Source of the DNA: Escherichia phage vB-Eco-KMB39
Reading direction: 5' to 3' (one strand)
Length of the DNA: 64,000 nucleotides
Sequence record: OR539219.1
Below are positions 41,317-48,340 of the stretch, one piece after another. A model generated the notes under the pieces. It did no database searches. It was given only the letters and a program-made list of their open reading frames with translations, and was not told the origin of the DNA. Positions within the stretch are counted from its first letter, which is position 1, and each line of letters opens with the position of its first letter. The position numbers and the translations under genes were made by a program.

Positions 41317-42495
41317 TTAAAAGTATTTTTTAAAACTCATCATAACTTTATCATCAACATCATTATCAATCTGTGCAACAAGATAAGATGACAGTTCTAC
41401 TTCTTGCGGCGCGGATTGAACATTATCAGAATTAAGGTATTCACGAATCCAAGGATATGGATGTTTAACCGGAGCATCGGTAATTGGGCATGGAAGACCA
41501 CACTGTTTCATACGAGATACAGTTAAGTAATCAATAAAGCTCCACATGCTATTTGTATTTAATCCAGGAACATCGCCATCTTTAAATAAATGAACTGCCC
41601 AATCTTTTTCTTGGCGGTTAACTTCCATGAAAATATCAACTGCTTCTTGTTCACACTCTTTGGCAATTTTAACCCATTCATCACCATCAGTGCCAAGTTG
41701 AAGTTGACGAATAATATACTGGGTGCCTTTAAGGTGGAGTTGTTCGTCTCGAGCAATGAATTTCATAATCTTCGCATTACCTTCCATGATTTCCATATTT
41801 TTATGGAAGTTGAAAGTACATGCAAAGGATACATAAAAACGAATAGCTTCCAGGGCATTGATAACATGAAGGCAGAGATAAAGCGACTTCATCAATGCAT
41901 ATTTACATTCTTCCACATGCATAAGACTATTTGAATATGCATCTAAATCATATTCATTTTCGGAAAAACATTTAAAAATTTCTTTTGCATTTTCCCATTC
42001 GCGCGTCTTAACCAGAACATCATCATAATAACGACCAATAGATTCAGCACGTTTCATGATAGCTTTATCTAATACAATCTCATCAAATACCTTTGACGGA
42101 TCAGTATAAAGATTTCGCATAATATGAGTGTATGAACGACTGTGAATAGTTTCACTAAAAGTCCATGTAGCAACCCATGTATCAAGACTTGGGTCTGAAA
42201 TTAACGACATAAGTACAGCAGACGGTGCACGACCCTGAATGCTATCTAGAAGTGATTGATACTTCAGGTTATTAGTAAAAATATCTTGCTGATATTGAGG
42301 AAGCTTGTTAAATTGCGCAGCATCCATCATTAAGTTTACTTCTTCAGGACGCCAGAAAAATGACAACTGCTTTTCGGTTAAATCTTCAAAAACTTTATGA
42401 CGTTGAATATCGTAACGCGCAATACCAAGACCTGAACCGAAGAACATAGGTTCTTTTAAAACATCAACTGGATTTGTATTAAAAACTGTAGACAT
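41317..42495 (-). CDS. nrdB: ribonucleotide reductase small subunit, uninterrupted
   Basis: 392 aa from ATG 42495 (MSTVFNTNP...); continuous reading frame; start overlaps mobE stop (TAATG). Confidence 0.9.
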   Translation of the reverse strand: MSTVFNTNPVDVLKEPMFFGSGLGIARYDIQRHKVFEDLTEKQLSFFWRPEEVNLMMDAAQFNKLPQYQQDIFTNNLKYQSLLDSIQGRAPSAVLMSLISDPSLDTWVATWTFSETIHSRSYTHIMRNLYTDPSKVFDEIVLDKAIMKRAESIGRYYDDVLVKTREWENAKEIFKCFSENEYDLDAYSNSLMHVEECKYALMKSLYLCLHVINALEAIRFYVSFACTFNFHKNMEIMEGNAKIMKFIARDEQLHLKGTQYIIRQLQLGTDGDEWVKIAKECEQEAVDIFMEVNRQEKDWAVHLFKDGDVPGLNTNSMWSFIDYLTVSRMKQCGLPCPITDAPVKHPYPWIREYLNSDNVQSAPQEVELSSYLVAQIDNDVDDKVMMSFKKYF

Positions 42496-43226
42496 TAATT
42501 TTTCCTCTTTAAAATTCTGCCGCGTTTCCAACCTGGCGGTATAATATCATCTTTACCTATAAGCGTGCATTCACTTCCATTATTAATCCATTTCTTACCG
42601 CGGATTCCTTTATAATCTCTTGGTTGTATTTTGTCAAACTTTGCATCAAGTTGATATGCCCATCGAAATCCATAGGCATATTGAAATTTACCCTCAGCAC
42701 AATATTTGATATTTGACCCGTTTCCATTAACTGACCTGGACGCTGCGGCAATAGAGTGAAAGGTTTCTATGAAATCCCCATCTAATGAGAATTTATGTAT
42801 TTCGATAGATGGGCATGCATACCTATTCACGTTTGATACATGTTGTTTAGTTTCGTTTTTATGATGCTTGCCTAACATTCCTCTAGGATGAGGATTATTT
42901 TTCCAATATTTCTTAAAGAAATCAGAATTAGCTTTAGCAAATAATTTTCTGTGCAAGCTATACAATCTGTTATTAATTCTATTACCAGCTTTATCTGTTG
43001 CCATTAACGTTAACGCAGAGGCAAGACCAAAATGGCCTTCATTTATCTTGCATAGTAATAGATGCGCTATAAAATGTTCTCTAGCTGTTAATTCAACTAA
43101 ATTTTCTTTATCATCAGAACCTCCCATGCATTTAGGGACTATATGATGTGTCTCTTTATACTCGGATAAATGTTCCCGAGCCTGAGCTCGGGAAATTAGG
43201 TCATTATAGATTTTTTGATAATTCAT
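42495..43226 (-). CDS. mobE: HNH homing endonuclease MobE
   Basis: 243 aa; HNH core ETHHIVPKCMGGSDDKENLVELTAREH; located between nrdA and nrdB as T4 mobE. Confidence 0.75.
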   Translation of the reverse strand: MNYQKIYNDLISRAQAREHLSEYKETHHIVPKCMGGSDDKENLVELTAREHFIAHLLLCKINEGHFGLASALTLMATDKAGNRINNRLYSLHRKLFAKANSDFFKKYWKNNPHPRGMLGKHHKNETKQHVSNVNRYACPSIEIHKFSLDGDFIETFHSIAAASRSVNGNGSNIKYCAEGKFQYAYGFRWAYQLDAKFDKIQPRDYKGIRGKKWINNGSECTLIGKDDIIPPGWKRGRILKRKN

Positions 43227-46047: not shown

Positions 46048-46359
46048 TTACACCGCCATTTTTCCTTTAATAGGAGGGTGTGATTCGTAACCTTTAAGAA
46101 CGAAATCTTTAGGCCTGAGTTTAAGAACATATTTTAATTGTTCTTTAGTAGAAAGATGACGGAATTTATAAGGCAATCCGCCTATTACCAGTTCACAAAG
46201 CTCTTTAGGTTCACGACGTAAAATTTCTTTACATTGTTCAACGTGATTCATATAGATATGAGTATTACCGCCAGAAAATATCAAATCTCCAGGAATAAGA
46301 TTACACATCTTAGCTACAATATGAATTAACGCAGCATATGATGCAATATTAAACGGTAG
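46048..46359 (-). CDS. td: thymidylate synthase, exon 2
   Basis: Frame begins directly after intron 3' AUG (CUACCGUUUAAU = LPFN...); C-terminal half of thymidylate synthase. Confidence 0.9.
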   Translation of the reverse strand, partial: LPFNIASYAALIHIVAKMCNLIPGDLIFSGGNTHIYMNHVEQCKEILRREPKELCELVIGGLPYKFRHLSTKEQLKYVLKLRPKDFVLKGYESHPPIKGKMAV

Positions 46360-47375
46360 CATTATGTTCAGATAAGGTCGTTAATCTTACCCCGGAATTA
46401 TATCCAGCTGCATGTCACCATGCAGAGCAGACTATATCTCCAACTTGTTAAAGCAAGTTGTCTATCGTTTCGAGTCACTTGACCCTACTCCCAAAAGGGA
46501 TAGTCGTTAGGCATTTATGTAGAACCAATTCCATTTATCAGATTTTACACGATAAGTAACTAATCCAGACGAAATTTTAAAATGTCTAGCTGCATCTGCT
46601 GCACAATCAAAAATAACCCCATCACATGAAATCTTTTTAATATTACTAGGCTTTTTACCTTTCATCTTTTCTGATATTTTAGATTTAGTTATGTCTGAAT
46701 GCTTATGATTAAAGAATGAATTATTTTCACCTGAACGATTTCTGCATTTACTACAAGTATAAGCAGAAGTTTGTATGCGAACACCGCACTTACAAAACTT
46801 ATGGGTTTCTGGATTCCAACGTCCGTTTTTACTTCCGGGTTTACTGTAAAGAGCTTTCCGACCATCAGATCCAAGTTTAAGCATCTTAGCTTTAACAGTT
46901 TCAGAACGTTTCTTAATAATTTCTTCTTTTAATGGATGCGTAGAACATGTATCACCAAACGTTGCATCAGCAATATTGTATCCATTAATTTTAGAATTAA
47001 GCTCTTTAATCCAAAAATTTTCTCGTTCAATAATCAAATCTTTCTCATATGGAATTTCTTCCAAAATAGAACATTCAAACACATTACCATGTTTGTTAAA
47101 AGACCTCTGAAGTTTTATAGAAGAATGGCATCCTTTTTCTAAATCTTTAAAATGCCTCTTCCATCTCTTTTCAAAATCTTTAGCACTTCCTACATATACT
47201 TTATTGTTTAAAGTATTTTTAATCTGATAAATTCCGCTTTTCATAAATACCTCTTTAAATATAGAAGTATTTATTAAAGGGCAGTCCTACAATTTAGCAC
47301 GGGATTGTCTACTAGAGAGGTTCCCCGTTTAGATAGATTACAAGTATAAGTCACCTTATACTCAGGCCTCAATTA
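46360..47375 (-). ncRNA. group I self-splicing intron in td (1016 nt)
   Basis: 5' splice site ...UUGGGU|UAAUUGAGGCCUGAGUAUAAGGUG; 3' end ...AUG|CUACCG; splicing restores a continuous thymidylate synthase frame; carries the I-TevI ORF. Confidence 0.9.
46507..47244 (-). CDS. intron-encoded GIY-YIG homing endonuclease I-TevI
   Basis: 245 aa; GIYQIKNTLNNKVYVGS GIY-YIG module, Zn finger and C-terminal DNA-binding domain; lies wholly inside the td intron. Confidence 0.9.
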   Translation of the reverse strand: MKSGIYQIKNTLNNKVYVGSAKDFEKRWKRHFKDLEKGCHSSIKLQRSFNKHGNVFECSILEEIPYEKDLIIERENFWIKELNSKINGYNIADATFGDTCSTHPLKEEIIKKRSETVKAKMLKLGSDGRKALYSKPGSKNGRWNPETHKFCKCGVRIQTSAYTCSKCRNRSGENNSFFNHKHSDITKSKISEKMKGKKPSNIKKISCDGVIFDCAADAARHFKISSGLVTYRVKSDKWNWFYINA

Positions 47376-47924
47376 ACCCAAGAAAACATCTACTGATCGT
47401 TGATACCACTGCAAATCCAAATAGCCATTACGCACATTAAACTGATAGAACATATGACAAGGCGGTAATGCCATTTGCTTGAGTTCAGCTGGATTCCATG
47501 CTGAAACAACTTGACGTCTATCATTTGGCAGTTTTTTAATACGATCAATAACTTCTACAATTTGGTCTACACCGCCAAAATCACGCCATTGTTTTCCATA
47601 AATTGGACCAAGTTCACCGCTATGGTATCCTAAATCTTTTGCTTGATTTTCGTAATTTTCATCCCAGACTGTTTTGCCTTGAATTAATGAATCATGCTGA
47701 ATTAATCGTAAATCATTTACGTTAGTACTTCCTGACAAAAACCATATTAGCTCAGCAATACAAGCTTTCCAGGCGAGCTTCTTAGTCGTTACTGCAGGAA
47801 AACCTTTAGTTAAATCCCAGCGTAATTTAGTACCGAACAAAGCAATTGTTCCTGTGCCTGTTCGGTCATCGGTTTCATAGCCATTTTCAAAAATGTCTTT
47901 AATTAAATCTTGGTATTGTTTCAT
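47376..47924 (-). CDS. td: thymidylate synthase, exon 1
   Basis: MKQYQDLIKDIFENGYETDDRTGTGT...; frame reaches intron-borne UAA directly after 5' splice site. Confidence 0.9.
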
Positions 47925-47969: not shown

Positions 47970-48320
47970 TCAATACGGTTTAGCATCAAATTTTCTTTCA
48001 ATTTCAGGCGTGAAATACAATTCTTTACCGCGTTTGGAAAAGCGACCAATAATATGATAATTATTCTCATCAAACGTAATATTGCCAATATCCATAGCTT
48101 TCAACCAAATATCGATATTTCTATCCAGTTTTATATCAAAATTCCAATACGGAGAACTATTACCGAAAATACTGCAAGCGGATTCAGTGCAATAACTGCT
48201 GCTATAAATCTTGTCTTTGGGAACTACTAATTGATAGACGCCTTTGATAAACTGAGGACCCTGCCATTTTGGTTGTTTCGCGTCTTTTTCTAATAGAATA
48301 GGATAATAATTAAAGTTCAT
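47970..48320 (-). CDS. hypothetical protein inserted between frd and td
   Basis: 116 aa from ATG 48320 (GTG at 48332 gives 120 aa); no recognisable motif; T4 frd and td overlap in my recollection. Confidence 0.5.
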   Translation of the reverse strand: MNFNYYPILLEKDAKQPKWQGPQFIKGVYQLVVPKDKIYSSSYCTESACSIFGNSSPYWNFDIKLDRNIDIWLKAMDIGNITFDENNYHIIGRFSKRGKELYFTPEIERKFDAKPY

Positions 48321-48340
48321 ATTTTCCGCCACGCGTTATT

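Follow-up and report, generated by a model that had tools for sequence, protein, structure and literature searches.

A T4-type td group I intron with the I-TevI gene, predicted to be mobile, in a T4-like Escherichia phage

The gene for thymidylate synthase (td) in the T4-like Escherichia phage vB-Eco-KMB39 (OR539219.1) almost certainly carries a mobile group I intron of the T4 td type, subgroup IA2, that encodes the homing endonuclease I-TevI. Coordinates below refer to the window, which is the whole 64,000-nt stretch of DNA that we analyzed. In the window, td is split on the minus strand into exon 1 (47924 to 47376), a 1,016-nt intron (47375 to 46360), and exon 2 (46359 to 46048).

47376..47924 (-): td (thymidylate synthase) exon 1; 549 nt, 183 codons; Pfam PF00303 model positions 1-175, E=2.8e-64
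46360..47375 (-): td group I intron, assigned to subgroup IA2; 1016 nt; 3 differences from T4T; 100% identical to Paracelsus
46507..47244 (-): I-TevI homing endonuclease ORF; 245 aa, looped out of P6a
46048..46359 (-): td exon 2; 312 nt with its stop codon; Pfam PF00303 model positions 176-266, E=1.2e-24

Anatomy of td and identity of its intron

Exon 1 ends in ...TTCTTGGGT at 47376, the intron opens with TAATTGAGGCCTGAGTATAAGGTG at 47375 and closes with ...ACATAATG at 46360, and exon 2 begins with CTACCGTTTAAT at 46359. The boundary strings and coordinates that an earlier note on this DNA had given, among them an exon 1 ending in ...UUGGGU at 47376, all match the sequence. Joining the exons of 549 nt and 312 nt yielded an 861-nt open reading frame (286 aa plus stop) with no internal stop, as expected from the claim in the same note that splicing restores a continuous thymidylate synthase frame. 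The PF00303 model, which is broken precisely at the exon junction (positions 1 to 175 and 176 to 266), is contiguous after joining, and the joined protein is identical to T4 Td at 276 of 286 residues. The first three bases of the intron form an in-frame TAA directly after TTGGGT, so that the unspliced exon-1 frame stops there. The apparent ATG start of exon 2 consists of the last three bases of the intron (AUG, with the terminal G) and is in frame with exon 2.

The annotated joined td CDS of T4T spans 1,877 nt, exactly as td does in the window, and when cut into 549, 1,016, and 312 nt it gave the same junction sequences. Alignment with T4 td, which had been proposed as a check, placed both introns at the same codon junction and found 1,013 of 1,016 intron positions identical, with three substitutions. 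The length, the identity to T4, and the fold described below thus agree with the proposal of a 1,016-nt td group I intron at 46360-47375. The two introns have in common the host gene, the codon junction, the length, the position of the open reading frame in P6a, and the regulatory region. They differ by a substitution at intron position 507 that causes a P126S change in the I-TevI linker, one at position 554 that falls on the third position of I-TevI codon 141 and leaves the protein unchanged, and one at position 883 that converts the P7.1 loop from UUUG in T4 to UUUU in the window. The exons differ from those of T4 at 53 of 861 positions (27 of 549 in exon 1 and 26 of 312 in exon 2), which changes 10 aa. 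In Escherichia phage Paracelsus (MZ501096; L011), the intron, with its I-TevI gene, is 100% identical over 1,016 nt, whereas the exons differ at 120 of 861 positions and exon 2 starts with CTTCCA instead of the CTACCG of the window. At least 80% of the intron is present in 198 phage records, 170 of them at 99% identity or more, and a resemblance of this extent is therefore far beyond chance. In sequence, the intron of the window equals a copy deposited earlier and adds neither a member nor a variant to its kind, and the T4 td intron with I-TevI is already known as a model system studied for decades.

The genes around td follow the T4 order: frd, td, nrdA.2, nrdA.1, nrdA, and nrdB. Over the 24 kb around td, the best phage records reach an identity of only about 96% (none exceeds about 96.6%) and are mostly Tequatrovirus, namely, RB3 and its relatives. 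In a difference from T4, the window has an additional 120-aa ORF without a Pfam match between frd and td (47970-48332, minus strand). T4T, in which frd and td overlap, does not have this ORF; RB3, OES_C-2, and SP1 have an ORF at the equivalent position. Between nrdA and nrdB lies a 243-aa ORF with HNH and NUMOD1 domains (42495-43226, minus strand), the ATG of which shares one base with the stop codon of nrdA (TAATG). Its position and overlap match the description of the free-standing homing endonuclease gene mobE in T4, and we take it to be longer than T4 MobE. The nrdB gene (41317-42531, minus strand) is a single uninterrupted ORF (Pfam Ribonuc_red_sm), and the phage therefore has no counterpart of the group I intron in T4 nrdB, which both PMC1865063 and PMC2988022 mention.

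Fold of the ribozyme and its detection

The elements of the ribozyme lie in two segments on either side of the endonuclease ORF.

47287..47375 (-): 5' ribozyme segment (intron 1-89); P1 3' strand, P2, P3 5' strand, P4, P5, and the 5' strands of P6 and P6a
47362..47367 (-): internal guide sequence GCCUGA (intron 9-14); forms P1 with exon-1 UUGGGU
46360..46522 (-): 3' ribozyme segment (intron 854-1016); P6a and P6 3' strands, P7, P7.1, P7.2, P3 3' strand, P8, P7 3' strand, P9, P9.1, P9.2, and omega-G; RF00028 40.2 bits, E=1.5e-8

We wrote the fold on the ORF-deleted intron, composed of intron positions 1-84 and 859-1016 plus a few exon bases. As first proposed, P1 to P10 comprised 70 pairs, of which 68 are standard in the window sequence; one P6 pair has since been renumbered from the minimum-energy fold. 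That fold, computed with ViennaRNA on the ORF-deleted intron, independently gave P2, P3, P4, P5, P6, P7.1, P7.2, P8, P9, and P9.1. P1 consists of six pairs between UUGGGU and GCCUGA, with U(-1)·G9 as the wobble pair of the 5' splice site. The third pair of P10 (G6/A+3) is nonstandard in the window and is unpaired in T4 as well, which leaves P10 with two standard pairs only. The intron ends in ...AUAAUG, with the terminal guanosine (omega-G), G1016, at window position 46360. In the core from P3 to P9, with the P3/P7 pseudoknot and the P4-P6 domain, every helix can be formed from standard pairs. Two hairpins characteristic of IA2 introns, P7.1 (UCCC/GGGA) and P7.2 (GGGUC/GACUC), are present between P7 and the 3' strand of P3, and the intron is therefore assigned to subgroup IA2.

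We evaluated covariation in 10 distinct, closely related td introns from Tequatrovirus, Mosigvirus, Gelderlandvirus, and Karamvirus. Across this set, 99.7% of the pair cells were paired, compared with 28 to 46% in slid controls, in which the 3' partners were moved by 1 to 3 columns. Compensatory double changes occurred at five pairs and in none of the slid controls: one in P8 (A-U to U-A), one in P7.2 (U-A to C-G, in STP4-a), two in P9.2 (G·U to C-G and A-U to G-C), and one in P10 (G·U to U-A). P1 was standard in all 10 sequences, with two pairs that vary on one side only and remain paired. P3, P4, P5, P6, and P7 are invariant in the set, and the support from covariation is confined to P7.2, P8, P9.2, and P10. 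Together, these results support the presence of a group I fold in the intron, with covariation for those four elements.

The Rfam group I model RF00028, which had also been suggested as a check, did not find the intron in the whole window, either at the gathering threshold or at an E value of ≤0.01. A local scan gave 40.2 bits (E=1.5e-8) on the 3' core, below the gathering score of 50, and only the 3' half of this match is meaningful since the model took ORF sequence for P1 to P6. The 5' part alone produced a weak, truncated match of 16 bits. The score stays below the threshold because the 738-nt ORF in P6a splits the core. In contrast, the model recognized natural td introns that have lost I-TevI, with orthologues scoring 64 to 73 bits. 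For an ORF-bearing copy such as that of the window, the suggested check would first require removal of the ORF.

L004 701-1020: HP3, ORF-less td intron with I-TevI deleted; 320 nt, 70.3 bits
L006 701-963: BYEP01, ORF-less td intron with I-TevI deleted; 263 nt, 64.1 bits
L005 701-954: HMD-9, ORF-less td intron with I-TevI deleted; 254 nt, 72.7 bits

These three introns occupy the same insertion site as the intron of the window and have a nearly identical ribozyme core; unlike it, they lack the I-TevI ORF and have P6a rebuilt as a short hairpin. At the Rfam gathering threshold, the scan likewise missed the intron that five IMG/VR contigs have at the td site, which probably reflects the same problem of an ORF within the core. 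At its default threshold, the model misses ORF-bearing phage introns, and a negative scan does not exclude an intron.

We also used the 3' core (P7 to P9.2, window 46360-46520, minus strand) as a 161-nt nucleotide query. It matched many unrelated phages at 69 to 77% identity and 63 to 95% coverage, including phages of Salmonella, Pseudomonas, Yersinia, Staphylococcus, Pectobacterium, and Acinetobacter, and the matches often lie beside genes for HNH or other endonucleases. This spread fits a broad family of phage IA2 introns.

I-TevI, its control region, and the proposed splicing and homing

The 245-aa ORF at 46507-47244, which the earlier note had described as a full-length GIY-YIG endonuclease, matches the Pfam models GIY-YIG, I-TevI_ZnF, and I-TevI_DNA-bd (PF01541, PF22635, and PF20987) with E values of 2e-18 to 3e-32. 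It is identical to T4 I-TevI at 244 of 245 residues, P126S being the sole difference, and the description is thereby confirmed. Residues 1-97 equal those of PDB 1MK0 and 1LN0 apart from engineered mutations (E75A in 1MK0), residues 130-245 show no difference from PDB 1I3J, and R27, E75, and the four zinc-finger cysteines are intact. Position 126 falls in the linker between the two solved domains. Because this position is P, S, or V in natural homologues, the substitution is probably neutral for I-TevI. The ORF overlaps the ribozyme: the 3' strands of P6a and P6, together with part of J6/7, come from its final five codons and its stop codon, and in P6a the UGUAG at intron 85-89 pairs with the CUACA of the ORF end.

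47243..47291 (-): I-TevI control region (intron 85-133); operator-like stretch, late-promoter-like motif, and hairpin
47398..47402 (-): I-TevI cleavage motif CAACG (5'-CNNNG-3'); exon-1 positions -27 to -23

Upstream of the ORF, AUAAAUACUUCU pairs with AGAGGUAUUUAU in a 12-bp hairpin of about -11.6 kcal/mol that buries GAGG, the ribosome-binding site, together with the first two bases (AU) of the start codon. The 5' arm of this hairpin contains the late-promoter-like motif AATAAATA at intron 101-108, and directly upstream of that motif is an operator-like stretch with 14 of 20 positions identical to the homing site. Intron positions 1-131 are identical to T4. In T4, the hairpin keeps I-TevI from being translated from early and middle transcripts, the start of late transcripts lies within the hairpin, and I-TevI acts as an autorepressor that binds the operator; mistimed translation impairs splicing (PMC2988022). 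By analogy with T4, we infer the same functions for these control elements in the window phage. On early and middle read-through transcripts, the hairpin would hide the ribosome-binding site of I-TevI. Transcription from the putative late promoter inside the hairpin would yield late transcripts that lack the 5' strand of the hairpin and leave the ribosome-binding site free, and the homing-site-like operator would let I-TevI repress its own late promoter.

The T4 td intron self-splices (PMC2988022), and the fold together with 99.7% identity to that intron points to self-splicing with guanosine in the window phage. The intron RNA would fold into the P1-P10 ribozyme, guanosine would attack after U(-1) of the U·G wobble in P1, and the freed 3'-OH of exon 1 would then attack after the terminal G1016, so that ...UUGGGU is ligated to CUACCG... 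The spliced product would be the mRNA for the 286-aa thymidylate synthase. On unspliced RNA, translation would stop immediately at the TAA that opens the intron.

The near-identity to T4 likewise leads us to infer that I-TevI cleaves intron-less alleles and that the intron homes by double-strand-break repair with co-conversion. The cleavage motif of I-TevI is CNNNG, at a distance of 23/25 nt from the insertion site (PMC5009752, PMC2988022). CAACG is found at -27 to -23 in the window allele; of the seven intron-less alleles that we aligned, six have it as well, the motif region of the seventh, AR1, lying outside the 60-nt comparison. During a mixed infection, I-TevI would bind intron-less td around the insertion site and cut at CAACG, 23/25 nt upstream, and double-strand-break repair would give the recipient a copy of the intron along with short tracts of the flanking exons. 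The window allele retains CAACG and would be protected from its own I-TevI because the intron splits the binding site of the enzyme.

Exon mosaic, recent homing, and competing readings

A query of 500 nt, built from the exons as predicted after ligation, aligned in one piece to many intron-less td genes. The closest are the intron-less alleles of SP1 (vB_EcoM_SP1; L010) and phage 132 (L020), which are identical to the spliced CDS of the window at 854 of 861 positions (99.2%). The intron-less td genes of T2, AR1, ESh29, Killian, and KIT06 are also colinear with the spliced CDS, and all seven alleles run through the predicted junction, as would be expected if the earlier note had placed it correctly. 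The alleles of SP1, phage 132, and T2 would represent homing sites of I-TevI: they have no intron, their Leu codon upstream of the junction is CTC or CTT instead of TTG, and their exon 2 starts with CTTCCA.

Intron and exons have diverged to very different extents. From T4, the intron differs by 0.3% and the exons by 4.9% and 8.3%; from Paracelsus, the intron differs by 0% and the exons by 14%. Furthermore, four of the seven exon differences between the window and SP1 or phage 132 lie within 6 nt of the junction (-6, -4, +3, and +6; binomial P of about 1e-6). As the intron has diverged much less than the exons, which correspond to those of an intron-less lineage, these comparisons suggest that the intron recently homed into an intron-less allele of the SP1/phage-132 type, with a short co-conversion tract. 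We found no single donor for this event, since the intron matches Paracelsus while positions +3 and +6 of exon 2 agree with T4 and differ from Paracelsus.

Within the last six bases of exon 1 (window 47376-47381, positions -6 to -1), the Leu codon is TTG in all 16 intron-bearing T4-like alleles (13 from GenBank and 3 from IMG/VR) and CTC or CTT in all 14 intron-less ones (7 from each source), counts that are not independent because the samples are phylogenetically related. The loci compared were L001-L020, L117, L210, L232, L233, and L235. TTG completes P1; a CTN codon would break two of its six pairs. As TTG is the P1-compatible codon, its distribution suggests that it was co-converted with the intron and that no sampled intron-less allele arose by precise deletion of the intron. 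The codon table was clean only after restriction to T4-like exons. Extended over all of IMG/VR, where it counted 94 and 114 stretches that lack an intron and 6 and 1 that have one, it was uninformative, since unrelated viruses also have the FLGLPFN motif of thymidylate synthase. For the combined scenario, in which an intron of the Paracelsus/T4 type homed very recently with an unusually short tract, the P1-compatible codon travels with the intron, and the sampled intron-less alleles never stem from precise deletion, we consider the chances to be about even.

Four IMG/VR sequences outside the T4-like set deserve mention: L229 (6614-6633, minus strand), L230 (5917-5936, minus strand), L231, and L234. 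The 150 nt upstream are unrelated to T4 td (about 28% identity), and ...GGT is followed by TAATT.AGGCC, which resembles the start of the td intron. They may contain a related intron at the equivalent codon junction of thymidylate synthase; in L229 and L230, a scan at the Rfam gathering threshold returned no intron.

We weighed three other readings of the locus. The intron might splice yet be immobile in this phage, because P126S impairs I-TevI or because local targets are resistant, with the ORF persisting as a decaying passenger. Loss of the ORF does occur naturally, as in HP3 (320 nt), BYEP01 (263 nt), and HMD-9 (254 nt), P126S is nonconservative, and the intron-less alleles differ at -6, -4, +3, and +6, inside the I-TevI binding region. 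However, the ORF is full length and identical to the solved catalytic and DNA-binding domains, natural homologues have P, S, or V at position 126, and I-TevI tolerates substitutions in its homing site, T2 being a classic recipient (PMC2988022). The low divergence of the intron relative to exons that match an intron-less lineage also points to recent mobility, and we consider immobility very unlikely. That same contrast could be produced by an assembly chimera of two co-occurring T4-like phages, with SP1-like exons and a Paracelsus-like intron: the intron is 100% identical to that of a phage whose exons differ at 120 of 861 positions, the exons are 99.2% identical to those of intron-less SP1, and no phage in the database exceeds about 96.6% over the 24 kb around td. 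Against a mis-join, the exon bases that fit the intron (TTG, -6 to -4) are of the intron-bearing type, as expected from homing with co-conversion, and the mosaic of conserved intron and diverged exons recurs across many independent complete genomes. This makes a chimera extremely improbable.

Finally, td could be a truly split gene that yields two polypeptides with no RNA splicing. Both exons contain a separate ORF that includes an ATG, and several GenBank records annotate two thymidylate synthase CDSs (td-A and td-B). Nevertheless, the two ORFs divide PF00303 at model position 175/176, within one fold, and the ATG of exon 2 is made of the last three intron bases. The intervening sequence moreover has a complete group I fold with covariation support and is 99.7% identical to a T4 intron that self-splices (PMC2988022), and we give the split-gene reading virtually no credence. 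The preferred reading is that of a T4-type mobile td intron with I-TevI. Accordingly, td is best annotated as one joined CDS and not as the two "thymidylate synthase" genes found in many deposited genomes, and the intron endonuclease should carry the name I-TevI. Conceptually, the td locus adds nothing new on homing; the contrast in divergence between intron and exons and the split between TTG and CTN codons would serve as small, clean population-level illustrations of homing with co-conversion.
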